A stretch of DNA of 64,000 bases from Clostridia bacterium (GCA_017399965.1 JAFQAP010000003.1:40028-104027); one strand, 5' to 3'. Counted from the stretch's first letter, positions 360-61,616 are shown. Notes: generated from the sequence alone by a model not told the origin. Program-made: numbers and translations.

Positions 360-726
360 CGTTTTTTGTTTGTTTTTGGGTTTTTATACAGACATCGGTT
401 TGGTGCGAACAGCTTGCGGGATGACGGCGGGGTTCCCCGCAAAACCGCAGGTTTTGTGGGGTGCAGGCGGGGACGTCATCCCCTACGGTCTGCAAACAGC
501 CACGGCTGTTCGATAATCGTAGGGGACGATATCCCTATCGTCCCGCTAATAATTATATTTGTTTTTTGCTCCGCAAAAAACTACCGAAATTCCTCATTTA
601 GCGATGCGAAGCGTCGCGTCGCATTCCCGGGGTTCCCCGAAAACGCTATGCGTTTTTGGGGTGGGTTGCCGGGGTTCCCCGAAAACGCTATGCGTTTTTG
701 GGGTGGGTTCCTCATTCCTCATTTTA
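360..726. repeat. Composite hairpin-repeat island
   Basis: Contains CCCC-N8-loop-N8'-GGGG hairpins at 435-461, 635-661 and 677-703. A 42-nt unit is tandemly duplicated (627-668 / 669-710). Also has the TTTTTTGC-tcc-GCAAAAAA hairpin (about 562-580) and CATTCCT heptads. An inverted homolog lies at 4400-4620. Confidence 0.85.
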
Positions 727-4334: not shown

Positions 4335-4860
4335 TATATGTCGCTTGCGCGACGTGATATATTGCGTTCCGCAACGTGATATGCCTTCTCACGAATGCGT
4401 GATAATTATTAGCGGGATGACAAGGATTTACCCCACGAATGCTGTTCGCATTCGCAGGGACCCCAAATCGGACGTCATCCCCTACGATTATCGAACAGCC
4501 GTGGCAACTGCGTAGGGGACGTCGTCCCCGCCTGCACCCCACAAAACCTGCGGTTTTGCGGGGAACCCCGCCTGCACCCCACAAAACCTGCGGTTTTGCG
4601 GGGAACCCCGCCGACGTCCCGTAAACTGTATGCACAAACTGCCGTCCATGAGAACCCAAAGTCCGCACAGACAAGCGATGGTAAAAAATCACCACGAAGG
4701 GGTTATATAAATGAACGAGGTTGCGACAAATCGCAAATGATGTGGGCTATCACCCAACGATGTTACGCCTGCGGCGTAAACGATGTTGCGCTTCGCGCAA
4801 ACGGAATCGTAACCATTTGTTAGGTTCGATGATTTATAGTTGATTATTAACCGAAAGTAT
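4335..4860. repeat. Composite repeat island
   Basis: 4340-4412 has GTGATAT words plus hairpins (GTCGC-ttgc-GCGAC, TTGCG-ttc-CGCAA). 4400-4620 is an inverted homolog of 418-556, including a 40-nt tandem duplication (4528-4567 / 4568-4607). 4690-4850 has AACGATG words plus hairpins (TTACGCC-tgc-GGCGTAA, TTGCGC-ttc-GCGCAA). Confidence 0.85.
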
Positions 4861-5485: not shown

Positions 5486-5692
5486 TTTGGCGTGATACTC
5501 TTAACGGAGTATCACGCCAGTTCTATTCGCCTTTGGCGAGTGATATTGCTACGCAGTGATATTCGGCTTGCGCCGAGTGTTATTCTCTTCGCGAGTTTAT
5601 GGGCGAATAGAATATCACTGTGAGGCGTAGACGAACAATATCACTGCTCGCAAGGGCAATATCACTCTTTGCGAAAGCAAAGAATATCACTC
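5486..5692. repeat. Repeat island with GTGATAT / ATATCAC words and hairpins
   Basis: The left half has GTGATAT(T) words and the right half has (A)ATATCAC words. Hairpins include GGCGTGATACTC...GAGTATCACGCC, TCGGC-ttgc-GCCGA and CTTTGC-gaaa-GCAAAG. A long-range pair joins TTCTATTCGCC with GGCGAATAGAA. Confidence 0.8.
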
Positions 5693-7469: not shown

Positions 7470-7812
7470 TGCCGTCTGTAATAACCCAAAATCTGCATAG
7501 ACTATCGTCTATAGAACTCAAAGTTCGCACAAACAAGCGTCTGTAGAACTCAAAGTCTGCACAAACAAGCGATGGTAAAACGCTGGAGAAAAGGTCTTTC
7601 GCGAGCGGTAGCTGTAGTAATCTACAGCCAGCGAAGCGAAAGCCTTTAAAAAACGCAAAATAAAGATAAAAGAACTTCCGTAGATTTTTCTACGGAAGTT
7701 TTCCTTTAATTATGGGTGTTCGGCAGGAGCAAGCCCCTGCCCTACATTTGGAAACGCACTGAACAGAACGATTTATTTCTTGCGTTTTTGGTCTACAGTG
7801 CTTTTACCGAGC
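7470..7812 (-). repeat. Family-B composite repeat (about 300 nt), inverted orientation
   Basis: Reverse complement aligns with 37812-38070, 27013-27325 and 39005-39310. Shared modules are tgtaGGGC.GG...CC.GCC, CCGTAGA-aaaa-TCTACGG, GCTGTAGnnnnCTACAGC and cagcgttttaccatcgct. Confidence 0.85.
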
Positions 7813-8628: not shown

Positions 8629-8770
8629 AATGAGGAATGAGGAACGAGGAACCCACCCCAAAAACGCATAGCGTTTTCGGGGAACCCCGGGAATGAGAAA
8701 CGAGAAACTATGGTTGATTTTTGCCCCAAGGGGCAAAAATCTTCCTTTTCTTTTCACTCTTCACTCTTCA
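8629..8770. repeat. Family-A island inside the pgk-tpiA intergenic space
   Basis: In order: AATGAGG heptads, the CCCC..GGGG hairpin (8656-8682, reverse form), GATTTTTG-CCCCaaGGGG-CAAAAATC (8716-8741), then TCACTCT heptads. The pgk stop codon (8768-8770) lies in the last heptad. Confidence 0.85.
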
Positions 8771-9973
8771 CTGCTTGTCGTTAAGACAAGCTATGCCGGG
8801 CAGTTCCAAACCTTCAAGAAATTCGAGGGATGCTCCGCCGCCGGTGGAAATGTGGGTGATCTTATCGCCGAAGCCGAGAGTCTGGCAAGCTGCTGCGGAA
8901 TCGCCGCCGCCTACGATAGTGATAGCGTCGGAATCTGCAAGCGCCTGTGCAACTGCCTTGGTGCCTACTGCGAGAGTGGGATTTTCAAATACGCCCATAG
9001 GTCCGTTCCAGATAACGGTCTTTGCGCTCATAACAGCGTTTGCAAACAGCTCTCTGGTTGCGGGACCGATATCAAGACCCTGCATATCCTCGGGGATAGC
9101 GTCTGCGGAAACGGTAACGGTTTCGATCTCTGCATCAATAGGATCGGGGAAGGATTTTGCGCAAACGGTGTCTACGGGGAGAAGAAGCTTTACGCCCTTT
9201 TCCTCTGCTTTTTTCATCATTTCTACGCAGTAATCGAGCTTGCTTTCGTCGAGCAGGGACTTACCGATACCCTTACCCTGAGCCTTGAGGAAGGTATATG
9301 CCATACCGCCGCCGATGATGAGAGTATCGACCTTTTCAAGCAGGTTGTTTATAACGTTAAGCTTATCGGAAACCTTTGCGCCGCCGAGAATAGCTACCAA
9401 AGGTCTGTCGGGATCGGCAAGAGCCTTACCCATAACGGTAATCTCTTTGTTTATAAGATATCCGCATACTGCAGGGAGGTAATCAGCTACACCTGCGGTG
9501 GAAGCGTGTGCTCTGTGTGCGGTACCAAAAGCATCGTTTACATAGATATCTGCCAAAGAAGCCAGCTTTTTGGCAAATTCGGGATTGTTCTTTTCCTCTT
9601 CTGCGTGGAAGCGAACATTCTCAAGCAGCATACATTCGCCTGCTTTGAGAGCTGCAGCCTTTGCAACTGCGTCTTCGCCTACAACGTCCTTTGCCAGAGC
9701 AACTTCGATACCGAGGCACTCGGAAAGGCGGGCTGCAACGGGAGCGAGAGTGTACTTCATGTTGAATTCACCCTTGGGTCTGCCAAGGTGGGAGCAAAGA
9801 ATTACTGCCGCGCCGTTTGCAAGGAGGTATTTGATGGTGGGAAGTGCGCCCTGAATACGGTTATCGTCTGTGATAACGCCGTCCTTAAGGGGTACGTTGA
9901 AATCGCAGCGAACAAGAACTTTTTTGCCCTGAACGCTGATATCCTCTACGGATTTCTTATTTACGTTGGTCAT
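8768..9973 (-). CDS. pgk: Phosphoglycerate kinase
   Basis: 401 aa from the ATG at 9973, with GAGGTG 7 nt upstream. The track start at 9982 is a GTG inside that RBS. Contains the motifs [10 protein letters not shown] and STGGGASLE. Confidence 0.95.
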
Positions 9974-11460: not shown

Positions 11461-11620
11461 GTTTCACGTGAAACAAAAAGAAGAGAAGAGAGAAGAGAGA
11501 AAAGAGAAAAGAAACGGAAGATTTTTGCCCGAAAGGCAAAAATCAACATTCATTCCTCGTTCCTCGTTCCTCATTCCTCATTCGTTTGCGCGAAGCGCAA
11601 ACGCTGTTTCACGTGAAACA
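11461..11620. repeat. Family-A island
   Basis: A GTTTCACGTGAAAC palindrome sits at both ends. Between them are a GA-rich arm, GATTTTTGCCcgaaaGGCAAAAATC (11520-11544), CATTCCT/CGTTCCT heptads and TTTGCGC-gaa-GCGCAAA. Confidence 0.85.
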
Positions 11621-16735: not shown

Positions 16736-16967
16736 TTAAATACTCCTTTCCGGTTGCATATATAATACTTTTGAAACGGCAAAAAGGTTACATAAAAAAT
16801 TTTTTAAAAAACTTGGCACATTTATTTTACCATATTATTCCTACATTTTCAATTATGCAAAATTGCCGAATATACCGCGCCTTTTTTGTCGGGGTCCCCA
16901 AGAAGTCGCAGACTTCTTGGGGTGATTATGCAGGGAAAACAAAGGGCATTTTTATTTGTGTAAAAAT

Positions 16968-17466: not shown

Positions 17467-17700
17467 ATGATGAATGAGGAAACACCGTCTGTAGCAGTAA
17501 AATCTAAAGGACGCGGAGCATTTGGATGCAGAAGCCTTTTTCGCGAGCGGGGAGCTGTAGTAACCTACTGCCTCCCGAGCGAAAATGGCTACAAAAACGC
17601 AAATAAAATAAAATTTTGAAGACGATTTTCGTCGGAAAAATTTTCACCTATTTTCTGTAATTAAAGCGGCGGAGGCAAGCCATCCGCCCTACAAACGGAA
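17467..17700 (-). repeat. Family-B composite repeat, inverted orientation, preceded by ATGATGAATGAGG words
   Basis: Reverse complement aligns with 39060-39300. Carries the GGCGGA...TCCGCC variant of the tgtaGGGCGG hairpin, plus GACGA-ttt-TCGTC. Confidence 0.85.
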
Positions 17701-17788
17701 GATAACTGCACGAAAATATTTATATGTTTTTGCGTTTTTGGTTCTGCGCCGAATGAACGCGTACATACAAAGAAAGGAAATTAATAAT

Positions 17789-23107: not shown

Positions 23108-23124
23108 GGTTCCTCCCTTTGGTA

Positions 23125-23244
23125 TTGATGAATGAGAAATGATGAATGTTGAATGATGAAAGATGAATGATGAATGATGGTTGATTTTTGTTCTGCGAAC
23201 AAAAATCTTCCGAAATTTCTCATTCCTCGTTCCTCATTCCTCAT
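23125..23244. repeat. Family-A island
   Basis: In order: ATGAATG/AATGAGA heptads, GATTTTTG-TTCtgcGAA-CAAAAATC (23183-23207), then CATTCCT heptads that end directly against the glyQS stop (23245-23247). Confidence 0.85.
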
Positions 23245-24642
23245 TTAAAACTTAAGTCTTTCGGAAATGTAATTTTTAACTTCACCGATAGGCATTCTCA
23301 CGCTTTCCATAGTATCGCGGTCGCGTACGGTCACGCAGCCGTCCTCAACGGATTCGAAATCGTATACCACGCAGAAGGGAGTACCGATCTCGTCCTGTCT
23401 GCGGTAACGCTTGCCGATACTGCCGGCTTCGTCATATTCGCACATAAAATCGGAGCAAAGGTCATAGTATATCTCTTTTGCCTGCTCGCCCAGCTTCTTG
23501 GAAAGGGGAAGCACCGCGCACTTATAGGGTGCGAGAGCAGGGTGGAGACGGAGTACGTAACGGATATCTTCTTTTCCGTCTTTAGAAAGATCTTCCTCGT
23601 CGTAAGCATCAACAAGGAAAGCAAGCAGAACTCTGTCTGCGCCCAGAGAGGGTTCGATAACGTAAGGCACGTATTTTTCGCCATTTTCGGGGTCGAAATA
23701 CGAAAGATCCTCGCCGGAATGGGCAGAATGTGCCTTAAGGTCGAAATCCGTTCTGGAAGCAACGCCCCACAGCTCGCCCCATCCGAAGGGGAACATAAAC
23801 TCAAAGTCGGTGGTAGCGTTGGAATAGTGAGCCAGTTCCTTGGGGTCGTGGTCACGCATACGGATATTTTCGGGGTTTATGCCCAGATTTACAAGCCAGT
23901 TATAGCAATAATCCTTCCAGTATACGAACCAATCAAGCTCGGTGCCGGGCTTGCAGAAGAATTCCAATTCCATCTGCTCGAATTCACGGATACGGAAAAT
24001 AAAGTTGCCGGGGGTGATCTCGTTTCTGAAGGATTTGCCGACCTGCGCAACACCGAAGGGAACCTTGCGGCGGGTGGTACGCTGAATGTTCTTGAAGTTT
24101 ACAAAGATGCCCTGCGCGGTTTCGGGACGGAGGTATACCTCTGCCTGGCTGTCCTCGGTAACGCCCTGGAAGGTCTTGAACATCATATTAAACTTGCGGA
24201 TGGGAGTAAAATCGCACTTGCCGCAGGTGCAGGTAACGCCCTTTTCAACGATATAATTGTACATTTCGTCGTTGGACATACCGTCAACGTGCATTTCGAT
24301 ACCGTTTTCTTTGTTCCATTTTTCAATAAGCTGGTCTGCACGGTGGCGCATTTTACAGCTCTTGCAGTCGATAAGAGGATCGTTGAAGTTAACAACGTGT
24401 CCCGATGCAACCCAGGTCTCTCTGTTCATAAGAATAGCGGAATCCAAGCCTACGTTGTATCTGCTTTCCTGCACGAACTTTTTCATCCAGGCGCGCTTGA
24501 TGTTGTTTTTAAGCTCTACGCCCAAAGGGCCGTAGTCCCAGGCGTTTGCCAGACCGCCGTATATTTCGCTGCCGCTGTAAACAAATCCTCTGTTTTTACA
24601 AAAGGCAACGATCTTTTCCATTGTTTTTTCGTTGTTGTTCAT
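23245..24642 (-). CDS. glyQS: Glycine--tRNA ligase (dimeric class II, GlyQS)
   Basis: 465 aa from [20 protein letters not shown], with a GGGAGAAAG RBS. Class II motifs and a C-terminal anticodon-binding domain. The track N-terminus (24714) runs through the promoter. Confidence 0.95.
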
Positions 24643-27004: not shown

Positions 27005-27426
27005 AAAAAATACCAATGGGAGCGCGTTCATTCGGCGCAGAACTAAAAACGCAAAAATTATAAATAGTTCTGTTTAGCGAATCTCCACAATGTAGGGCGG
27101 GGGTTTACTCCCGCCGCTCTAATAACACATTAATAGGTAAAAAATTTTCCGACGAAAATCGTCTTTAAAATTTTATTTTATTTGCGTTTTTATAGAAGCT
27201 TTTACTTCGCTAGCTGTAGATTACTACAGCACGCTCGTAAAAGACTTCTTCTGCATCCAAATGCTCCGCGTCCTTCAGATTTTGAGAACTACAGCCGGTA
27301 GATTTCGAAGAAATTAATCAATAGTTTTTTGCATTTTTGCAAAAAACTTACCGAAATTTCTCATTCCCGGGGTTCCCCGAAAACGCTATGCGTTTTTGGG
27401 GTGGGTTCCTCATTCCTCATTCATCA
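27005..27426 (+). repeat. Family-B composite repeat (27013-27325) followed by a family-A island (27325-27426), inside the ABC cluster
   Basis: Aligns with 39005-39310. Followed by TTTTTTGCA-ttt-TGCAAAAAA, the CCCC..GGGG hairpin (27375-27401) and CATTCCT/CATTCAT heptads that abut the stop at 27427. Confidence 0.85.
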
Positions 27427-30535: not shown

Positions 30536-31657
30536 ATGGCAAAAATCGCAATACTCGGCTTCGGCGTGGTAGGTCAGGGCGTATACGAGGTTTTAAATAC
30601 CAATTCCCGTCTTATAACCGCCCGCACGGGAGAAGAGTTTATTATAAAACGCATACTGGATAAAAGAGTTTTCCCCAACCATCCTTTGGGGGACAGAGTA
30701 ACGGCAGATCTTAACGATATACTTAACGATACGGAAATTTCCGTAGTTGCGGAGACTATGGGCGGCACTTCCCCCGCTTATGAATTTTCCCTTGCTCTTA
30801 TCCGCGCAGGCAAAAGCGTGGTCACCTCCAACAAAGCGGTGGTTGAAAAGCACGGAAAAGAGCTTTGCGCAGAGGCGGCAAAACACGGCGTGGCATATCT
30901 TTACGAAGCTTCCGCAGGCGGCGGAATTCCCGTAATACATCCTATTCTCCACTGTCTTGCAGGTAACGATATTCAAAAGGTGTGCGGTATACTTAACGGC
31001 ACCACCAATTATATACTCACAAAAATGCGGGACGAGGGCCTTTCCTTTGATACCGCTTTAAAGCAGGCGCAGGCACTCGGCTATGCGGAGGCGGACCCTA
31101 CGGCAGACGTTTCCGGCGCAGATGCGGCGCGTAAAATATGCATATTGGCGTCCCTTGCCTTTAATACCCATATCGCACTGGAAAACGTATCCGTTATGCA
31201 GGGTATCGAGGACGTGACGGAAGAAGACGTTATCAAAGCGGAAAAGCGGGGATACGCCGTAAAGCTTATCGGCTTCGGTGAAAAAACGGGAGATACCGCG
31301 CGGCTGTTCGTTGCCCCCTGTCTTGTAAGCAAAAAGACGGTGCTGGGCATAACCGATGACGTTATCAACGCCGTTTCCGTTTACGGCGATTGCGTGGGCG
31401 GAGTGACCTTCCGCGGCAGAGGCGCAGGCGGAAAAGCCACCGCGTCCGCCGTTGTTTCGGATATTCTTGAAGCACACAGCGGCAAATATGTTAAAGAATA
31501 TAAAAACGAAAAAGTATCCTTCCTCAACGTGAACGAAGGAAAGGATATGCTGTATATACCCGAAACCGACGAATTTATACAGCCCGATACGCTGGAAAAT
31601 CAGTTGAAGGCTGTAGGAAGTAAGAAGTATTATAGGGTAGTTGAGATAGCGGAATGA
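30536..31657 (+). CDS. hom: Homoserine dehydrogenase (no obvious C-terminal ACT domain)
   Basis: 373 aa with the motifs ILGFGVVGQG, VVTSNKA, EASAGGGIP, GILNGTTNYIL and GYAEADPTADVSGADAARK. Confidence 0.9.
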   Translation: MAKIAILGFGVVGQGVYEVLNTNSRLITARTGEEFIIKRILDKRVFPNHPLGDRVTADLNDILNDTEISVVAETMGGTSPAYEFSLALIRAGKSVVTSNKAVVEKHGKELCAEAAKHGVAYLYEASAGGGIPVIHPILHCLAGNDIQKVCGILNGTTNYILTKMRDEGLSFDTALKQAQALGYAEADPTADVSGADAARKICILASLAFNTHIALENVSVMQGIEDVTEEDVIKAEKRGYAVKLIGFGEKTGDTARLFVAPCLVSKKTVLGITDDVINAVSVYGDCVGGVTFRGRGAGGKATASAVVSDILEAHSGKYVKEYKNEKVSFLNVNEGKDMLYIPETDEFIQPDTLENQLKAVGSKKYYRVVEIAE

Positions 31658-31775
31658 GGAAGGAGGAATGAGGAATGAGGAATTACGGAAGATTTTTGTT
31701 CTGTGAACAAAAATCAACCATCATTCATCATTTAGCATCGCGTTCGCGATGCGTCGCATTCATCATTTCTCATTG
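31652..31775. repeat. Family-A island
   Basis: The hom stop TGA (31655-31657) lies inside the first AATGAGG word. Followed by GATTTTTG-TTCtgtGAA-CAAAAATC (31691-31715), CATTCAT heptads and GCATCGC-gttc-GCGATGC. Confidence 0.85.
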
Positions 31776-31798
31776 TTTTTTGTTTTTCCCTTGAAAAA

Positions 31799-33151: not shown

Positions 33152-34474
33152 ATGAAAAAGTTTATTTCCGTAAGTCTGGTGCTTATGCTGGTTCTCACAA
33201 GCCTGCTTGTTATCAGCACCTCCGCCGCAGAGGCTGACAGTATAGTTCATTCTCTGCTTCCCGCCGAAGACGATACAAACGGCAAGGTTACGGTTAACAA
33301 CTGCGAGTACACCTGCAATGCAGACGGCTCTGTTACCTTTACCGTTACCGGCGCAGGCGCAAGCGTTAATGTTGTATATGCAGAAGGCGCTACCGTTTGG
33401 GCAGGCGATGCGTTTAACGTAAGAGAAGGCGCATACGTTGTATTCGATTACGGCTCTGCAGACGGCGCAACTCTCGGTCAGTCCACTCAGGCTCACTACA
33501 CCCGTAAGGATAAAGAAGCAAACGGCACTGTAGCAGACCTCTGGCTTACCTCCATGCAGACTATGACCAATTATCAGAAGGCATCCGGCGATGGATACGG
33601 CATCTGGTCTTTGGGCGATTACCTTGTAACCGAAAAGGGCGATGCAGGCATTTTCGAGGATAATATGCACCGCTTTACCTCTCTTGAGCTTTACATAGAA
33701 GGTCCCGTAGGTTCTTCCGTAACCGTATACCGCTTCTACGTTGGTACCGCAGACGCTGTTGAAGGTCTGGGCTCCGTACGTCCCGAAGCAAAGGAACCCG
33801 AAGTAAGCGAACCCGAAGAAAGCGAACCCGCAGTAGAGGTTGAAATTCCCGAAGGCGCGATCAACCTGGGCAGAGTTCCCGTTAACACCAGCATCAGTAC
33901 CGGCTCTACCACCGTTGTTTCCGACCCTGCAATTATGCACAATTATAACGTAAAGTGGACCTCCTGCGCACTGCTCAGACCCACCGAAAACGAAAACGAA
34001 TATTCCGTTGTTGCTACCAAGTGGCTTGACGGCGTTGATACCTTCCTCTTTGAGGAAGCTAAAGAAGGCGATATCGTTCTTTCCGTTCACGGTGACGATA
34101 CCGTTGCAGGCTCTCAGGCAAACAAAGATGCTCTTACCGCACTTCCCGCAGGAAGCATTGTTACCCTTATCGGTTATGATTTTGAAAAGCTTACCGCCGC
34201 AGACGATGCAGTAGTATTCTTTGTTCCCGGCACCGCAGGCACCGATGAATCCGAACCCGAAGCAAGCGAAGAGCCCTCCGAAGAACCCTCCGAAGAGCCC
34301 TCCAAGGATGAGTCTGCTCCCGTTGCAAACAACTCCGAAGATGAATCTACCCCCGCCTCCGGCGAAGAGACCAATGTTATCGGCACCGGTCTTATTATCG
34401 GTATAGTTGCAGGCGTAGTTGCAGTTGCTGTAATAGTAGTTGTAGTTATCGTTGTCGTTAAAAAGAAGAAATAA
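33152..34474 (+). CDS. Secreted hypothetical protein with an acidic Pro/Glu linker and a C-terminal TM anchor
   Basis: 440 aa. Signal peptide MKKFISVSLVLMLVLTSLLVISTSAAEA, AAGGAG RBS, SEPEASEEPSEEPSEEPS linker and a C-terminal hydrophobic helix plus KKKK. The 508-aa antisense ORF was rejected. Confidence 0.7.
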   Translation: MKKFISVSLVLMLVLTSLLVISTSAAEADSIVHSLLPAEDDTNGKVTVNNCEYTCNADGSVTFTVTGAGASVNVVYAEGATVWAGDAFNVREGAYVVFDYGSADGATLGQSTQAHYTRKDKEANGTVADLWLTSMQTMTNYQKASGDGYGIWSLGDYLVTEKGDAGIFEDNMHRFTSLELYIEGPVGSSVTVYRFYVGTADAVEGLGSVRPEAKEPEVSEPEESEPAVEVEIPEGAINLGRVPVNTSISTGSTTVVSDPAIMHNYNVKWTSCALLRPTENENEYSVVATKWLDGVDTFLFEEAKEGDIVLSVHGDDTVAGSQANKDALTALPAGSIVTLIGYDFEKLTAADDAVVFFVPGTAGTDESEPEASEEPSEEPSEEPSKDESAPVANNSEDESTPASGEETNVIGTGLIIGIVAGVVAVAVIVVVVIVVVKKKK

Positions 34475-34516: not shown

Positions 34517-34667
34517 AGTGAAGAGAGACGAGAGAAAAGAGAAGAGAAACGGAAGATTTTTGCAAAGCGTTGCAAAAATCAACATTCATTCCTCATTCCT
34601 CATTCCTCATTCCCGGGGTTCCCCGAAAACGCCATGCGTTTTTGGGGTGGGTTCCTCATTCCTCATT
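34517..34667 (+). repeat. Family-A island
   Basis: In order: a GA-rich arm, GATTTTTG-CAAagcgTTG-CAAAAATC (34555-34580), CATTCCT heptads, the CCCC..GGGG hairpin with a CAT loop (34621-34647), then CCTCATT. The stop of the - strand gene (34663-34665) lies in the last heptad. Confidence 0.85.
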
Positions 34668-35415
34668 TGCTTTTCTTCTTATCCATAAAATACCATGGTA
34701 GATATGCGAGCACAAACAGCGTGGTCACCGCCGCCATCATCACGGCGAAGCGGAGCGCGAAATTGGGAGGAAGGATATCGAGTATCGAGGGGGTATCCTC
34801 GGGGCGCGCCATAAACAGATAGTTTGCGCCGGGGCCTATAATACGGTTTGCCGCAAAGGCAACGGCGGTAAGCACTCCCAACAGCCCGTAGGCTTTAAAA
34901 GCGCCTTTTACCGTGGGGCGCATCTTATGTACGAACACCATATAGAATACGGAAACGTAACCCAGCGTGTGCTCCAGCCAGAACTGGTAGTATCTGAAGC
35001 GGGTGGGACCGGTAAACGAAATTACCGTGGGAGTTATGAGAGCGAATACAGACCCTGCAAACAGCCAGAAATATACTATATCAAAAAGGCTTTGGCTTTT
35101 GCCGATAACCATAAAGCTGCAAAAAACGACCGCCCAGCCGCACACGGTGATGGGGAGATGGTCCACGGGGTTGGGATCCAGCGAAGGAATGCCCACAAGC
35201 CGCCAGTAATAGGACATTTCGGAAATTATAAGCATAAACGCAAGGGTATAGCGGAATGCTTTTTCATGCTTGCACGCCTGTATTTTATCCTTAAACCGCC
35301 ATATAAGCAAAATTACTCCCACGGCGATAAGTATGGGAAGAAAATGGGCAAGAGAAAAGTTTGCAAATTCCTCTGTTTCCCCTTTTCCGAAAAAGTAATT
35401 AAAAAATTCCTTCAT
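34663..35415 (-). CDS. Integral membrane protein, TIGR02206/YwaF-like
   Basis: 250 aa with about 7 TM helices. The N-terminus FSLAHFLPILIAVGVILLIW resembles the YwaF family. GGAGGA RBS. Confidence 0.5.
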   Translation of the reverse strand: MKEFFNYFFGKGETEEFANFSLAHFLPILIAVGVILLIWRFKDKIQACKHEKAFRYTLAFMLIISEMSYYWRLVGIPSLDPNPVDHLPITVCGWAVVFCSFMVIGKSQSLFDIVYFWLFAGSVFALITPTVISFTGPTRFRYYQFWLEHTLGYVSVFYMVFVHKMRPTVKGAFKAYGLLGVLTAVAFAANRIIGPGANYLFMARPEDTPSILDILPPNFALRFAVMMAAVTTLFVLAYLPWYFMDKKKSK

Positions 35416-35485: not shown

Positions 35486-35606
35486 AAATGAGGAACCCGT
35501 TTCGGGAGAGAAGAGATAAGAGAGAAAAGAGAAAAGATTTTTGCAAAGCGTTGCAAAAATCAACCATCATTCCTCATTCATCATTCCTCATTCATCATTC
35601 CTCATT
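35486..35606 (+). repeat. Family-A island (same hairpin core as 34555-34580)
   Basis: In order: an AATGAGG word, a GA-rich arm, GATTTTTG-CAAagcgTTG-CAAAAATC (35536-35561), then CATTCCT/CATTCAT heptads abutting the stop at 35606-35608. Confidence 0.85.
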
Positions 35607-36037
35607 TATCTTTTCTTTGCCGCTTTCTTTATTATATCCGCTTTTGTCTGCTTTTTTCCTGCGGCGATGTATCCTCCCAGCAAAGGGGCAAGCGCCGCCG
35701 CAAGGGGAGGGAGCACACGGGCGAGCAGGTTTTCGCTTTCGGGGAAAAAGGCGCATAATACCCCCAGCAAAACAAGGGTAGTCACTGCGGCGTAAACTCC
35801 GCTTATTAATGCGCCCCCCAGCTTTACCGCCAAAAATCCCCCTGCCATACCGCCCAAACCTATGGCTATACACGCTGCGGTAAGGATATGGGAAGCGGGG
35901 TCTGCACTTCCCGCAAACGCCGCCGCAAGACACAGCATTAACAAAACAGATACAAAGGGCACGGCAACACCGCCGATAAGTCCGCCCAACAGAGGGTTTA
36001 AGGTGAGTTTATTTTCTTTTTTCATCTTTGCGCACAT
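35606..36037 (-). CDS. Small Gly-rich membrane protein (TIGR04086/YrzE-like)
   Basis: 143 aa (or 139 aa from MKKENK at 36025). Three to four Gly/Ala-rich TM helices. Confidence 0.4.
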   Translation of the reverse strand: MCAKMKKENKLTLNPLLGGLIGGVAVPFVSVLLMLCLAAAFAGSADPASHILTAACIAIGLGGMAGGFLAVKLGGALISGVYAAVTTLVLLGVLCAFFPESENLLARVLPPLAAALAPLLGGYIAAGKKQTKADIIKKAAKKR

Positions 36038-37811: not shown

Positions 37812-38195
37812 AACACTGTAGATCGAAACGCAACGTGTTTAGAAGTTTTACTGCAGCAATTTCCCAAATGTAGGGCGGGTGGCTTGCCCCCGCCGTACCA
37901 TTTACCAAATAAGGTAAAAATTCCGTAGAAAAATCTACGGAATTTTCTTTTTTATTGCGTTTCTACGCATTTTCGCTTCGCTGGCTGTAGAATACTACAG
38001 CTCCCGCTTGCGAAAAAGCGTTCTACAGCGTTTTACCATCGCTTTCGCTCGGTTTTCTGCAGACATTACGTATCAAAAACAATTACACGGTTTTTTGCAC
38101 CGCAAAAAACTACCGAAGTTTCTTGTTTCTCGTTTCTCGTTCCTCGTTGCGGGGTCCCCAAAAATGCGGATGCATTTTTCGGGGTGCCCCTTGCT
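37812..38195 (+). repeat. Family-B composite repeat (37812-38070) followed by a family-A-type island (38070-38195)
   Basis: Contains tgtaGGGCGGG...CCCGCC, CCGTAGA-aaaa-TCTACGG and GCTGTAGaatACTACAGC. Followed by TTTTTTGC-acc-GCAAAAAA, GTTTCTC/GTTCCTC heptads and the CCCC-AAAAATGC..GCATTTTT-GGGG variant (38156-38184). Confidence 0.85.
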
Positions 38196-38341: not shown

Positions 38342-38369
38342 TTGAATTTATGCAAAACTGTGTTATAAT
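38342..38369 (+). promoter_or_regulatory. Promoter of the large ncRNA
   Basis: TTGAAT (38342-38347), 16-nt spacer, TGtTATAAT (38361-38369). Confidence 0.55.
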
Positions 38370-38375
38370 GAATAG

Positions 38376-38995
38376 GCGATGGCGCAGTATTCTAGTTAGC
38401 GCGGCGTTTTTGAAGGCGTGCCTAAAAATACGTCAAACGGCAGATCGATGAAGCTCCTGGTGTTTGCTTTGTACGCCCAGTTCAGGGTGGATGCTGGGAG
38501 AGTGGACTGTGGGCGCACCCCAACGGCATGGGGCGGCTAACCCACTTTCCTTTGAGGCTTTTTCTTCGTGGCGGACCTTAACACATGGAAAAGGGGGCTA
38601 CGGGATTAAGATTAAACCTATCACGCGGTACGACCATTACAGATGCTGTGGATAGATGTAGCCGGCTTTGAGTGGGTCATGGCGGATAACGTTCATGTCG
38701 GGATGAGATTAGCTACCGAACCTCGAATAAATCGCGTTTGAAATCATGCCTGCAAAAGAAGATAAGAAAACGTTTTGCGCTATGGCGGAAAACGCCTAGA
38801 CTGTTATCGTGGCAGATAAACACGTATGGGCACGGTGCGGATTACAGTGCGGACTCATAGGCAATCAAGTCGCGGAACCGGTAACGCTCCGCCTCGGTCT
38901 TTAATGGGGAACCCCTTCATCGGCGACGAGAAGGAGACCGCGGGGAAATCCTACTTGACCGTAAGCCGCAAGGTCTACGTACCGTGCCGCCATTA
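38376..38995 (+). ncRNA. ole: OLE (ornate, large, extremophilic) RNA candidate
   Basis: About 620 nt with no credible ORF and no repeat-family content. It is richer in G+C than the surrounding spacers and has many local helices. It has its own promoter and lies upstream of a 4-TM oapA-like gene followed by dxs-tlyA-nadK-argR-recN, which is the classic OLE synteny. The ends are approximate. Confidence 0.65.
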
Positions 38996-38996
38996 T

Positions 38997-39310
38997 TCAA
39001 AAAGCCATTGGGAGCGCGTTCATTCGGCGCAGAACCAAAAACGCAAAAAATAATATATAGTTCTGTTTAGTTATTTTCCGAATGTAGGGCGGGTGGCTTG
39101 CCCCCGCCGTTTTAATAGTAGATTATAAGGTAAAAATTTTTCCGACGAAAATCGTCTACAAAATTTTATTTTATTTGCGTTTTTGTAGCCGTTTTCGCTC
39201 GGGAGGCAGTAGATTACTACAGCTCCCCGCTCGCGAAAAAGGCTTCTGCTTCCAAATGCTCCGCGCCCTTCAGACTTTTTGTTCTACAGCCATTACATAT
39301 CAAAAACACT
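38997..39310 (+). repeat. Family-B composite repeat between OLE and oapA
   Basis: Aligns nearly end to end with 27013-27325. Confidence 0.85.
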
Positions 39311-45404: not shown

Positions 45405-45528
45405 GAATGAGGAATGAGGAATGCGCCGCGTTGCTTCGCACCGCTAAATGAGGAATTTCGGAAGATTTTTGTTCGTTACGAACAAAAATCAACCATCATT
45501 TCTCATTCATCATTCATCATTCCTCATT
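45405..45528 (+). repeat. Family-A island
   Basis: In order: AATGAGG heptads, the aatgCGCCGC...GCTAAATGA module, GATTTTTG-TTCGttaCGAA-CAAAAATC (45464-45490), then CATTTCT/CATTCAT/CATTCCT heptads. Confidence 0.85.
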
Positions 45529-45559
45529 AAAAAATGCCGCCAAAAAGGCGGCGTTTTTT
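45529..45559. terminator. Bidirectional terminator hairpin
   Basis: AAAAAATGCCGCC-aaaaa-GGCGGCGTTTTTT. Confidence 0.75.
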
Positions 45560-48937: not shown

Positions 48938-49070
48938 AATGAGGAATGATGAATGCGACGCGATGCAAAGCATCGCTAAATGATGAATGATGGAAACCTT
49001 TTTCACGCTTCGCGTGAAAAAGCTACCGAAATTCCTCATTCCTCATTCCTCATTCCTCATTTTCATCATT
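48938..49070. repeat. Family-A island
   Basis: In order: AATGAGG/AATGATG heptads, GCGATGC-aaa-GCATCGC, CTTTTTCACGC-ttc-GCGTGAAAAAG, then CATTCCT heptads. The pyrR stop (49066-49068) lies in the last word. Confidence 0.85.
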
Positions 49071-50610: not shown

Positions 50611-51009
50611 ATGGAAATAGCAATTATCGCCAACGATAAGAAAAAAGAGCTTATCACCGAATTCTGCATAGCATATTGCGGAGTGCTTGCCAAGCACAAC
50701 ATCTGTGCAACAGCTACGACAGGAAAATACATAAGCGAAGCAACGGGACTCAAAGTTACCCGTATGCTTGCAGGCTCTCACGGCGGAGCAGAGCAGATCG
50801 CTGCCCGTATAGCGTATAACGAGATCGACCTGGTTATCTTCCTGCGCGACCCCAATACGGATGCAGAGTATATAGATACCACGCTTCAGGTCATCCGTCT
50901 GTGCGATAGCCATAACATCCCCGTTGCAACCAATATCGCAACTGCGGAGGCGCTTATTCTGGCGCTCGGCAGAGGAGACCTTGATTGGAGAGAGATTCAG
51001 AGAAAATGA
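50611..51009 (+). CDS. mgsA: Methylglyoxal synthase
   Basis: 132 aa. Contains IAIIANDKKKEL, ATATTGKYI and GSHGGAEQIAA. The stop TGA lies inside the first AATGAGG word of the next island. Confidence 0.85.
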   Translation: MEIAIIANDKKKELITEFCIAYCGVLAKHNICATATTGKYISEATGLKVTRMLAGSHGGAEQIAARIAYNEIDLVIFLRDPNTDAEYIDTTLQVIRLCDSHNIPVATNIATAEALILALGRGDLDWREIQRK

Positions 51010-51105
51010 GGAATGATAAATGATAAATGATGAATGATGGTTGATTTTTGTTCGCAGAACAAAAATCTTCCGTAATTTCTCATTCCTCATTCCTCATTCA
51101 TCATT
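51004..51105 (-). repeat. Family-A island (inverted relative to 52389-52515)
   Basis: In order: AATGAGG/AATGATA/AATGATG heptads, ATGGTT, GATTTTTG-TTCgcaGAA-CAAAAATC (51043-51067), CTTCCG, then CATTCCT/CATTCAT heptads. Confidence 0.85.
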
Positions 51106-51128
51106 AATTTTTACGGAGTAAAAATTCT

Positions 51129-52388
51129 ATGGAACAAATAAAAAAACCTCGGGGAACACTTGATATTCTTCCCGAGCAGACTGCCGCCTGGCAGTATATC
51201 GAAAAAATAATACGCAAAAAGTGTCTTGAATACGGCTTCGGCGAGATACGCTTCCCCACCTTTGAAGCTACCGAGCTGTTCTCCCGCGGTGTGGGCGATA
51301 CTACCGACGTGGTGCAAAAGGAAATGTACACCTTTAAGGATAGGGACGACCGCAGTCTGTCCTTGCGTCCGGAGGGAACGGCGTGCGTTGTCCGCAGTAT
51401 GCTGGAAAACGGTCTTTACGCAGGCGCAATGCCCTTAAAGCTGTATTATCTTACCAATTTCTTCCGCTACGAAAAGCCCCAGGCAGGCAGAAGCAGAGAG
51501 TTTTTCCAGTTCGGAACAGAGCTGTTCGGCTCCGAATCCCCTGCGGCGGATGCAACGGTCATCTCCCTTGCATACAGCGTGTTCAAGGAATTGGGACTTA
51601 ATAATGTGGTGCTTCACATAAATTCCGTGGGCTGTCCCGGCTGCCGTCCCAAATACAGAGAAGCACTTGTTGAATATCTTGGCGGATACACGGAGGGTCT
51701 TTGCCCCACCTGTCTTGAAAGACTGGGCAAAAATCCCCTTCGCGTGCTGGATTGCAAATCTCCCGTATGCTCGGAAATAGCAAAAAACGCACCCAAGACC
51801 ACACAGCACCTTTGCGAGGATTGCGAACAGCATCTTAAAGCGCTTACGGATATTCTTGATGCATCGGGAATTCCTTACGTTATAGATTCGGGTATCGTAA
51901 GAGGCTTGGATTATTACACCGGCACGGTGTTTGAGTTTATAGATGAACGTATCGGCGCCCAGTCCACCGTTTGCGGCGGCGGCAGATACGACGGACTCGT
52001 TTCCCAGCTTGGCGGACCGCAGATGTCGGGCGTAGGCTTTGGTATGGGTATTACCCGTCTTATCGCCTGCCTTGAAACGGAGAATTTGTTAAAGAGCGTG
52101 GATACCGCACCGGATATCTATCTTGCTCCCGCGGAAAAGAGCGTGTATGCAAAAGTATTTACTCTTTGCGAACAGCTCCGCGCTATGGGTATAAAGGCGG
52201 AAACCGACCTTTGCTCCCGCAGTATAAAAGCGCAAATGAAATATGCGGATAAAATTCACGCCCGCTTTACAGCCGTTATCGGCGGAACAGAGACGGAAAC
52301 CGGCGTAGTTACGGTCAAGAATATGCAAGACGGCGGCAGGGCGGAAGTCGCACTTACGGCGGCAGACATTGCTAACGCAATAAAATAA
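51129..52388 (+). CDS. hisS: Histidine--tRNA ligase
   Basis: 419 aa. Class II motifs (RFPTFE, FRYEKPQAGRSREF, GGGRYDGL) and a C-terminal anticodon-binding domain. Confidence 0.95.
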   Translation: MEQIKKPRGTLDILPEQTAAWQYIEKIIRKKCLEYGFGEIRFPTFEATELFSRGVGDTTDVVQKEMYTFKDRDDRSLSLRPEGTACVVRSMLENGLYAGAMPLKLYYLTNFFRYEKPQAGRSREFFQFGTELFGSESPAADATVISLAYSVFKELGLNNVVLHINSVGCPGCRPKYREALVEYLGGYTEGLCPTCLERLGKNPLRVLDCKSPVCSEIAKNAPKTTQHLCEDCEQHLKALTDILDASGIPYVIDSGIVRGLDYYTGTVFEFIDERIGAQSTVCGGGRYDGLVSQLGGPQMSGVGFGMGITRLIACLETENLLKSVDTAPDIYLAPAEKSVYAKVFTLCEQLRAMGIKAETDLCSRSIKAQMKYADKIHARFTAVIGGTETETGVVTVKNMQDGGRAEVALTAADIANAIK

Positions 52389-52515
52389 ATGAGGAATGAG
52401 GAATGCGACGCTCTTGCAAGCAAGAGCTAAATGAGGAATTTCGGAAGATTTTTGTTCGCAGAACAAAAATCAACCATCATTCATCATTCATCATTCATCA
52501 TTTCTCATTCCTAAT
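52389..52515 (+). repeat. Family-A island between hisS and aspS
   Basis: In order: AATGAGG heptads, GCTCTTGC-aa-GCAAGAGC, CGGAAG, GATTTTTG-TTCgcaGAA-CAAAAATC (52447-52471), AACCAT, then CATTCAT heptads. Confidence 0.85.
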
Positions 52516-52552
52516 TCTTCACTATACTTTGAAAGAAGGCAAAATTAAAACC

Positions 52553-60745: not shown

Positions 60746-60749
60746 ATAT

Positions 60750-60845
60750 CATTTTACGGGGTGCTGTATAATATATATACGGCTGAGAATATACCCGATG
60801 AACCTGTCAGATAATACTGTTGAAGGGAGAAGACGTGTAAAAAAC
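60750..60845 (+). promoter_or_regulatory. TPP (THI-box) riboswitch aptamer
   Basis: Reads acGGGGTGC...GCTGAGA..ACCCgaTGAACCTGtcaGATAATACtgttGAAGGGA, which matches the THI-box consensus blocks. Upstream of thiT. Confidence 0.85.
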
Positions 60846-60904: not shown

Positions 60905-60977
60905 ATCGGGGTCCCCGAGAAGCCGTTAGGCTTCTTGGGGTGATTTGACGAGATAAATCCACGTCGTAATTTTAAAA

Positions 60978-61544: not shown

Positions 61545-61578
61545 ACAAAAAACTCCCGAAAACATCGGGAGTTTTTTA
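61545..61578. terminator. Bidirectional rho-independent terminator
   Basis: AAAAAACTCCCGA-aaaca-TCGGGAGTTTTTT between convergent genes. Confidence 0.8.
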
Positions 61579-61616
61579 ATGATAAATGATGAATGATGAA
61601 TGAGGAATTTCTCATT

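Follow-up and report, generated by a model that had tools for sequence, protein, structure and literature searches.

A dispersed hairpin repeat with variable yet paired stems in a Clostridia bacterium and in genomes from several phyla

We analyzed a 64,000-nt stretch of DNA from a Clostridia bacterium (GCA_017399965.1, JAFQAP010000003.1:40028-104027; hereafter the window, meaning the whole stretch), which contains 11 copies of a hairpin repeat element, named E here. Each copy comprises CGGGGT(T)CCCC, an 8-bp stem, a loop of 3–4 nt and GGGGTG, and the copies fall into five stem variants (v1 to v5) in which pairing is retained. An earlier reading of this DNA made from sequence alone (the sequence-only reading) had listed the copies, and its coordinates and sequences were correct for every one. 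All 11 copies (11/11) are intergenic, lie in either orientation to the genes beside them, and neighbour unrelated housekeeping genes and RNA elements (Na/Pi transporter, cysteine desulfurase, DUF3267, pgk/tpi, ABC transporter, DUF1854, OLE RNA, and a thiamine pyrophosphate (TPP) riboswitch with thiT). The window proteins had matches only in metagenome contigs and in metagenome-assembled genomes (MAGs) labelled Clostridia or Eubacteriales. Independent assemblies of this strain exist from several samples, with identical E copies; one of the records compared was 99.995% identical to the window and showed no polymorphism. L-numbers (L001, L128, etc.) denote loci or contigs from other records that were compared with the window.

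The pattern CCCC-N8-N3-4-N8-GGGG matched 11 times in the window, compared with 1.93 expected matches and a maximum of 6 in 100 shuffles. One match, at 23765-23791, is a non-palindromic chance match, and the pattern misses the v3 copy at 38156-38184 because of a 1-nt bulge; with the former removed and the latter added, the true copy count is again 11. The shorter motif GGGGTYCCCC occurred 9 times, compared with 0.30 expected. A covariance model (R1), a check that the sequence-only reading had proposed, was built from 91 distinct copies from other genomes and the window, with the window v3 copy added by hand. In the window, R1 found exactly the 11 copies, at 43–57 bits, and one degenerate copy at 4429-4465 on the minus strand (19.9 bits); the opposite strand of each copy scored only 15–27 bits. 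The variants form one real family, as opposed to chance palindromes that share G4/C4 clamps.

Near the start of the window, a v2 copy (CGGGGTTCCCC-GCAAAACC-GCA-GGTTTTGT-GGGGTG; 428-463, plus strand; 50.4 bits in R1) lies between a divergent Na/Pi cotransporter gene (minus) and a cysteine desulfurase gene (plus), nested in a larger palindromic repeat of ~150 nt (395-560). Two v1 copies (stem GAAAACGC/GCGTTTTT, loop TAT) form a 42-nt tandem pair, with the first unit at 628-663 (plus; 43.3 bits) and the second at 670-705 (plus); the second unit is followed by a TTCCTCA heptamer array and is located upstream of a promoter-like TTGACA...TATAAT, as read in the sequence, that precedes the gene at 789. 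The degenerate E-like copy at 4429-4465 (GGGGTCCCT-GCGAATGC-GAACA-GCATTCGT-GGGGTA; minus; E-value 0.05) sits in the loop of a hairpin, GGGATGAC...GTCATCCC, belonging to a larger v2-type repeat, and the same subfamily is also present in L127 (35.3 bits). Two further v2 copies form a 40-nt tandem pair on the minus strand (4535-4570 and 4575-4610), the first lying between a DUF3267 gene and an open reading frame (ORF) of 182 aa; as both genes are on the plus strand, this copy is antisense to both.

A v1 copy in the pgk-tpi spacer (8654-8689, minus) is oriented as the operon and lies in the right-hand array of a heptamer-hairpin-heptamer module. The v4 copy, which has a perfect stem (AAGAAGTC-GCA-GACTTCTT; 16890-16924, plus; 57.5 bits), is preceded by a T-run between divergent ORFs, and an identical variant occurs in another species (L085, L088, L104). 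Two more v1 copies lie within TTCCTCA arrays: one at 27368-27403 (plus), flanked by an ABC transporter gene (minus) and a DUF1854 gene (minus) and antisense to both, and one with a CAT loop at 34614-34649 (plus), which adjoins a terminator-like hairpin between the convergent genes at 33152-34474 (plus) and 34663-35415 (minus). The v3 copy (AAAAATGC-GGAT-GCATTTTT, with a bulged C; 38150-38186, plus; 45.6 bits) is preceded by a GTTTCTC array and has an OLE RNA ~180 nt downstream. The v5 copy (GAGAAGCC-GTTA-GGCTTCTT; 60907-60942, plus; 56.2 bits) begins 2 nt past the T-run of the terminator hairpin downstream of a TPP riboswitch aptamer; its end is 36 nt upstream of the thiT/YuaJ start codon. With the degenerate copy and two copies in the adjoining 9 kb, the organism carries 13–14 copies in 73 kb.

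E is 35–36 nt long with a linker of 4–6 nt (35–42 nt overall) and consists of an invariant 5' tail CGGGGT(T), a CCCC/GGGG clamp, an 8-bp inner stem, a compact loop and a 3' tail TG. The 5' arm of the inner stem is always purine- and A-rich and the 3' arm is T-rich, and the loops are often G-N-A or GNRA with a C-G closing pair. Each window copy folds as an isolated, self-contained 12-bp hairpin, and the folding energy of v1 was -11.9 kcal/mol as DNA (z = -5.1) and -18.6 kcal/mol as RNA. The 5' CGGGGT(T) and 3' TG were unpaired as DNA and as RNA in all genomic contexts folded. The sequence-only reading had suggested a two-state geometry in which CCCC pairs with either the upstream or the downstream GGGG; this is not supported, since GGGG-T(T)-CCCC cannot close a hairpin with a loop of 1–2 nt, and every fold leaves the 5' GGGGT unpaired. 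Its further statement that G-U pairs are the only imperfections holds for v1, v2 and v5 (G-T or G-U) and fails for v3, which has the bulged C, while v4 is perfect. Among 92 distinct variants, the first inner pair is G-T in 52, A-T in 38 and G-C in 2, with the polarity of the wobble constant. The first-pair wobble, the purine- and A-rich 5' arm and the loop type show a strand-specific constraint.

Covariation was analyzed in an alignment of the 92 distinct sequences, which had been pre-selected for at least 7/8 pairs. In this alignment 98.1% of cells were paired, compared with 80.7% in column shuffles, the covariation score was 0.502 versus 0.157 in shuffles, and sliding the partners by 1–3 columns lowered pairing to 39–62%. 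Six of the 8 inner pairs were changed on both sides, and the four clamp pairs were invariant. Because the alignment was pre-selected for pairing, we added a two-substitution neighbour test that is independent of this selection. For stem variants two substitutions apart, both changes fell in one base pair in 45 of 76 cases (59%), compared with 6.7% expected if changes were independent, and 35 of these 45 same-pair double changes were fully compensated. Pairing is therefore preserved through compensated changes, as the sequence-only reading had claimed; the possibility it had raised against itself, that single-arm changes are as common as compensated ones, was examined and the outcome favours compensation. 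With a looser genome pattern, 137 of 157 copies among the matches listed had 7–8 of the 8 inner positions paired, and 107 of 157 had all 8. E is strand-asymmetric, with tails and clamp invariant and an inner stem that is free yet paired.

The distribution of E was examined by scanning GTDB, with one genome per species, for a pattern that fixes the tails, the clamp, the closing C-G pair and one T and leaves 7 of the 8 stem positions free. The scan revealed at least 113 E loci with dozens of different stems. Among the matches listed, the record titles name about nine phyla and include Clostridia, Eubacteriales, Oscillospiraceae, Christensenellales, Thermaerobacter, Paludibacteraceae and other Bacteroidales, as well as Dormiibacterota, Chloroflexota, Desulfarculus, Alpha- and Betaproteobacteria, Nitrospirota, Acidobacteriota and Actinomycetes. 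Two phyla are secure, namely those of the window, which carries a Firmicutes-type OLE RNA, and of the Paludibacteraceae loci, which encode GlnRS. The window v4 and v5 stems are also present in other Clostridia of the ruminant gut and in one Bacteroidales MAG, the v1 stem GAAAACGC is common to the window organism and Paludibacteraceae, and the stem GCGAAATC is common to soil MAGs labelled Dormiibacterota, Actinomycetes and Acidobacteriota; among the matches listed, stem subfamilies are shared within habitats. E had no match in 72,556 plasmids and one match in 2.9 million viral contigs, and a double-T subfamily had two matches in the metagenome scan. Tandem clusters were also present in L094, L096 and L048, with tandem periods of 40–42 nt and units 4–6 nt apart.

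Comparison with relatives revealed sites lacking the element. The covariance model found no E in 55 kb from relatives with 80–91% identical TPI. The window pgk-tpi spacer contains a module in which a terminator-like hairpin has a heptamer array on each side, and E lies within the right-hand array. In L128 (TPI 89% identical) the same module is present and E is absent, providing an orthologous empty site, and in L119, L120 and L122 the pgk-tpi spacers measure 13–24 nt and contain neither module nor E. A paralogous empty site is located in the window itself, where the hairpin at ~517-540 is uninterrupted and its counterpart holds the 4429-4465 E-like copy in the loop.

In Paludibacteraceae MAGs, E was found inside long ORFs in three frames and both orientations, namely those for IleRS, GlnRS, chorismate synthase (aroC, twice), an IlvE-like aminotransferase (two MAGs) and a histidine kinase. 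Alignment of the L087 glnS product with E. coli GlnRS revealed a clean, gap-free addition of 14 residues, APQNATSVFGDPAA. The best-matching GlnRS of the protein collection, at 95% identity, is shorter by 14 residues. Its glnS DNA (L131) aligns position by position with that of L087 on both sides of a precise 42-nt in-frame insertion in the latter, which consists of GCAG, E and CT on the E top strand, with no target duplication. In the Era protein of a Thermaerobacter MAG, E lies within a stretch of ~22 additional residues. The Paludibacteraceae E variant, on reading its sequence, has no stop codon in six frames. Cases inside long ORFs of GC-rich MAGs were rejected, being mostly spurious ORFs without a Pfam domain, and only the Paludibacteraceae cases and the Thermaerobacter era case were accepted as coding insertions. 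E is a dispersed family in many phyla that is present or absent between close relatives and is inserted precisely, including in frame in essential genes.

Two of the same ORFs carry other repeats. The L061 ileS ORF contains several 7-residue periodic inserts, (SQSPIAN)n, seen at the protein level only and presumably derived from in-frame 7-nt DNA arrays, and the L049 aroC insert has array-derived peptides on both sides (EVKGERRR...KAKGEEVKG), which suggests that heptamer arrays, like E, lie inside coding genes in the Paludibacteraceae lineage. Genes for a four-helix-bundle protein of the 23S_rRNA_IVP family (PF05635) are present near the E-bearing region of the window organism (L001 4857-5222) and in the Paludibacteraceae relative without E in glnS (L131 1768-2130); no link to E was seen.

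A T-run precedes E in 15 of 114 copies examined, ~10 of the 15 standing behind a strong terminator-like hairpin; these post-terminator copies belong mostly to the gut v4/v5 subfamilies and start 2–4 nt past the T-run. The Desulfarculus, Alphaproteobacteria and Oscillospiraceae copies are located at the apex or in the loop of larger palindromes, v1-type copies lie in 7-nt arrays after ATTCC, and Paludibacteraceae copies often follow YTCGCC, so that left flanks are subfamily-specific (ATTCC, TTRT, YTCGCC). The 4 nt of the left flank are repeated 1–2 nt past GGGGTG in 17 of 123 copies, compared with ~2 expected, and the length of flank repeats varies from 0 to 6 nt and is once 33 nt. Among 137 neighbouring proteins, 211 Pfam families were detected and none was enriched, with no transposase among the 25 largest families and no recombinase enriched, and all-against-all ORF clustering of the 113 loci gave no shared family. 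The sites that E favours are the tails of terminators, the loops of other hairpins and tandem arrays of 7 nt, and the neighbours share no function.

The 33-nt case concerns L069 (680-714) and L103 (2760-2794), both from Dormiibacterota MAGs, in which E lies just after a thiolase gene and is bracketed by a 33-nt direct duplication of the last 10 codons and stop codon of that gene. The 33-nt copies differ almost only at third codon positions, and genome-specific variants are common to both copies, a pattern that suggests gene conversion between the two. Translational bypass was considered and set aside; the differences are too few for a decision, and conversion between the two copies accounts for the pattern.

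The window has a second and more abundant intergenic repeat, in which a tandem 7-nt array rich in purines (AATGAGG/AATGATG/GAGAAAA) is separated by a terminator-like hairpin (GATTTTTG-stem-CAAAAATC) from one rich in pyrimidines (TTCCTCA/TTCATCA). The three parts make up one long imperfect palindrome between genes, with E v1 copies in its right arm. These heptamer modules are located at 8629-8784, 11476-11587, 23117-23250, 31640-31790, 34520-34613, 35506-35618, 45405-45530, 48938-49066, 51005-51110, 52388-52528 and 61578-61608, and the heptamer unit varies between related species (GTTCATA in L128 and L106). The v2 copies are carried by a composite palindromic repeat of ~150 nt, GGCGGGGACGTCATCCCCTACG...GCCACGGCTGTTCGATAATCGTAGGGGACGAT...TCCCGCTAATAATTAT (395-560 and 4400-4660), and part of this repeat is also found in L127. 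Near position 414, a little ahead of the v2 copy, contigs L003 and L005 part from the window sequence; this divergence at the composite repeat suggests recombination or an assembly break. Tandem repeats of 32 nt, AGAACTCAAAGTCYGCACAAACAAGCGWYDGTARAA, lie downstream of tpi (7481-7580), with a single copy near the v2 cluster (4651-4686) and related sequence in L127 and L016.

Beyond what the sequence-only reading had described, the hairpins make up a dispersed repeat with insertion polymorphism, found in different phyla and also within coding sequences. We consider it probable that they are copies of a miniature non-coding mobile palindromic repeat, similar to repetitive extragenic palindromic (REP) sequences and Rickettsia palindromic elements (RPEs), that is recognized as a strand-specific hairpin through its conserved flanks. 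The form recognized would be the folded single strand, presumably the top strand, as it is this strand that tolerates the conserved G-T wobble. A trans-acting enzyme would read the tails and clamp by sequence and the inner stem by shape only; a copy with one broken pair would no longer spread, and a compensated copy might found a new subfamily. If only foldable copies spread, different stems would arise, each fully paired, as observed. By analogy with IS200/IS605 and with REPs and their REP-associated tyrosine transposases (RAYTs), the enzyme would most likely be an HUH/Y1 single-strand transposase; since no such gene was found, we offer this step as a hypothesis. We further conjecture that a single hairpin serves both ends, with the left target and the right terminus fitting the same guide, an arrangement that would account for the pseudo-duplications as well as for the glnS insertion without duplication. 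In a secondary role, copies already in place may be of use to the host as stable hairpins of RNA or DNA. A bolder version, which we put forward tentatively, holds that E is an uncatalogued, horizontally spreading single-hairpin transposable element and the smallest "peel-and-paste" substrate, that it has crossed phyla within habitats (ruminant gut, soil, groundwater) and invaded essential genes in frame, that its stems evolve as only foldable copies replicate, and that its enzyme is perhaps not a classical RAYT.

Several points weigh against a mobile repeat of this kind. No transposase or HUH gene was present beside any copy in the window and ~900 kb of loci, as judged from neighbour Pfam counts and an HUH/Y motif regular expression only; no RAYT (Y1 HUH) was seen in the same sample, into which a single-copy gene would rarely fall, nor was an autonomous tnpA/tnpB element seen in the retrieved loci, no genome-wide search for one having been made. 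The flank evidence is inconsistent, with short direct repeats at some copies and no target duplication in the clean glnS pair. Nearly all E genomes are MAGs, so some phylum labels may be binning errors, and the covariation alignment was pre-selected for pairing, as stated above. The foot tag CGGGGT(T), present in all copies, lacks the GT[AG]G hallmark of REPs, and E flanks, and even stems, are kept across phyla whereas REPs are species-specific. Finally, the copies in L021, L039 and L047 (Dormiibacterota/Limnocylindrales MAGs) are orthologous and conserved, with an A-T to G-C compensatory change, and could reflect host-level selection.

These conserved copies bear on the best-surviving alternative, a host-selected structured RNA module (mRNA-stabilizing, insulating or protein-binding) in which pairing is kept by selection at each locus, which we consider unlikely for the family as a whole. 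In its favour, the G-U-tolerant polarity is conserved, copies are present in an operon spacer (pgk-tpi) and a 5' untranslated region (TPP-thiT), and REPs are known to stabilize transcripts (PMC6006769). Between co-directional genes in low-GC loci, moreover, the E top strand coincided with the gene strand in 20 cases and with the opposite strand in 7 (p = 0.02), a mild sense-strand excess that is compatible with a lagging-strand-template bias or an RNA role and does not separate them. By contrast, both orientations are common, including antisense operon-spacer copies (27368 and 4535-4610 in the window, and those of L021, L039 and L047, which fill the gene spacer), the 628-705 copies are upstream of the promoter-like TTGACA...TATAAT, and v4/v5-type copies stand directly past terminator T-runs. 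In-frame coding copies use three different frames, there is no association with a gene family and no Rfam match, and close relatives keep the same operons without E. A host-selected RNA hairpin is possible for individual copies; it cannot explain the coding insertions, mixed orientations and patchy distribution.

Passive spread of a duplex-DNA site for a chromosome-organizing or topological protein, as with the bacterial interspersed mosaic elements (BIMEs) bound by IHF or gyrase, appears improbable. The near-palindrome GGGGTCCCC could bind a dimer, and E is chromosomal, as its absence from the plasmids and near absence from viral contigs indicate, but the double-T form GGGGTTCCCC breaks the palindrome and is yet a full family member, the conserved G-T wobble, like the compensated stems, speaks for a folded single strand over duplex recognition, and patchiness among close relatives is at odds with a core chromosomal role. 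Templating of one arm by the other (hairpin-templated repair or intra-palindrome gene conversion), without selection on hairpin competence, which the sequence-only reading had offered as an explanation, would fit the fully paired state of most copies (107 of the 157 matches listed) and the identity of copies within genomes, but is very improbable, since arm copying would erase the first-pair wobble, bulges and mismatches, which persist across genomes as the G-T first inner pair of constant polarity in 52 of 92 variants, A/G-mismatch subfamilies (AAAAAGAC/GGCTTTTT) in several genomes, bulged-G (Paludibacteraceae) or bulged-C (v3) subfamilies in several genomes, and a purine-rich/pyrimidine-rich arm asymmetry kept across phyla.

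The window contains other structured RNAs and repeats. A full-length OLE RNA is located at 38363-39009 (plus; 386.5 bits), and GGGGAACCCC at 38906-38915 is part of this RNA and not an E copy. A Gut-1 RNA at 5518-5588 (plus) scored 51.4 bits, just above threshold, and the TPP riboswitch at 60747-60845 (plus) is followed by the terminator, the E copy and the YuaJ/ThiT thiamine transporter gene. Two tRNA genes are also present. A repeat of ~150–260 nt containing GCTGTAGATTACTACAGC occurs at 17499-17761 and 39015-39278, as inverted copies up to 95% identical, with further copies at 27053-27230, 7590-7669 and 37943-38022; one of these copies directly adjoins the OLE RNA on its 3' side.

A mobile repeat of the kind proposed would be unusual, since REP-type repeats are seen as lineage-specific and tied to a resident RAYT gene, whereas the 36-nt architecture and flanks of E are common to Clostridia, Bacteroidota, Dormiibacterota, Desulfarculus, Nitrospirota and Proteobacteria MAGs. 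The stem subfamilies shared within habitats and the clean in-frame insertions in aminoacyl-tRNA synthetase and other core genes are also unusual. The dozens of compensated stems provide a natural data set for telling apart the sequence and the shape requirements of a structure-specific DNA enzyme, and E copies could mark horizontal exchange between gut phyla. There are practical consequences too: E breaks metagenome assemblies (L004 ends inside a tandem E pair, and L003 and L005 end ~90 nt upstream of a v2 copy) and adds peptides of 12–14 residues to annotated proteins.

Several known identities were considered and rejected. E does not fit an intrinsic terminator: after the hairpin the top strand reads GGGGTG and then non-T sequence, the bottom strand reads ACCCCG, and several copies follow a separate terminator. 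A miniature inverted-repeat element of a DDE transposon would have inverted ends, but CGGGGT... and ...GGGGTG are not inverted copies and the flank repeats have no fixed length. An integron attC site was rejected for want of RYYYAAC/GTTRRRY ends, the tandem units being 4–6 nt apart with no ORFs between them; type III toxin-antitoxin RNA and CRISPR, as there are no adjacent toxin or cas genes and no spacers; and a G-quadruplex, as each unit has only two G-tracts. Rfam gave no relevant match for the whole window at gathering thresholds, and an E-value scan of 380-760 gave chance-level microRNA matches only. E is not listed in the supplementary REP tables of PMC6006769 and PMC3733652, and its motif does not appear in the RepRanger text (PMC12306157). 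A full-text search for GGGGTCCCC and GGGGUCCCC gave no bacterial match, and the literature on REP/RAYT, REP-like repeats, palindromic elements in genes and IS200 miniatures yielded no matching element, in both cases with subscription journals outside the scope.

Among known systems, integron attC sites resemble E in their conserved ends, variable complementary inner stem and recognition as a folded single strand (presumed for E), but E lacks R''/R' core sites (RYYYAAC/GTTRRRY), cassettes and a nearby integrase, and measures 36 nt compared with 57–141 nt. The mobile GC clusters of yeast mitochondria (PMC4478555) are likewise palindromic, GC-clamped, ~30–40 bp long and scattered, but are eukaryotic organelle elements of unrelated sequence in AT-rich intergenic DNA. 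TIRYT repeats with their GGGGWSAS motif (PMC3733652, PMC6006769) are a weak lead, as E contains GGGGTC and GGGGTG, with neither the complete motif nor the inverted arrangement present. IS200/IS605 elements insert precisely, without target duplication, beside a short specific target in a strand-specific process on single-stranded DNA (PMC6006769), and in both IS200/IS605 and REP/RAYT the cut sites of the Y1 HUH enzyme are set by a guide beside the hairpin foot (PMC6006769, PMC8266576). The substrate of IS200/IS605 and of palindrome-associated transposable elements (PATEs), a hairpin with an adjacent guide, is comparable to E, with its precise glnS insertion and subfamily-specific left flanks; unlike them, E is a single hairpin without distinct left and right ends or an associated tnpA/tnpB, and many copies have a short flank repeat.

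The closest parallels are REPs and RPEs. Like E, the palindromes of REP and of inverted REP doublets (REPINs) with RAYTs are 20–40 nt long, high in copy number and mostly intergenic, with several stem classes per genome and clusters often just past genes or terminators (PMC6006769, PMC8266576, PMC3733652). For TnpA-REP to recognize a REP, the hairpin must be folded and single-stranded, with a conserved motif ahead of it (PMC8266576; PMC6006769). E likewise has a conserved short motif 5' of the hairpin foot and a stem presumably recognized as a folded single strand, but clusters as head-to-tail tandems of 40–42 nt (628-705, 4535-4610) and not as the inverted doublets of REPINs and BIMEs. RPEs, reportedly described by Ogata and colleagues in 2000, are said to be selfish palindromes that lie in frame inside protein-coding genes. 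They are ~100–150 bp long and confined to Rickettsia, whereas E is 36–42 nt long and occurs in many phyla; both are found between genes and in frame in conserved genes, where they are tolerated as peptide loops (for E, in GlnRS, IleRS, AroC and Era). By analogy, E would work like a REP and, in coding regions, like an RPE, and what is unusual in E is its conservation across phyla together with its in-frame invasion of core genes.

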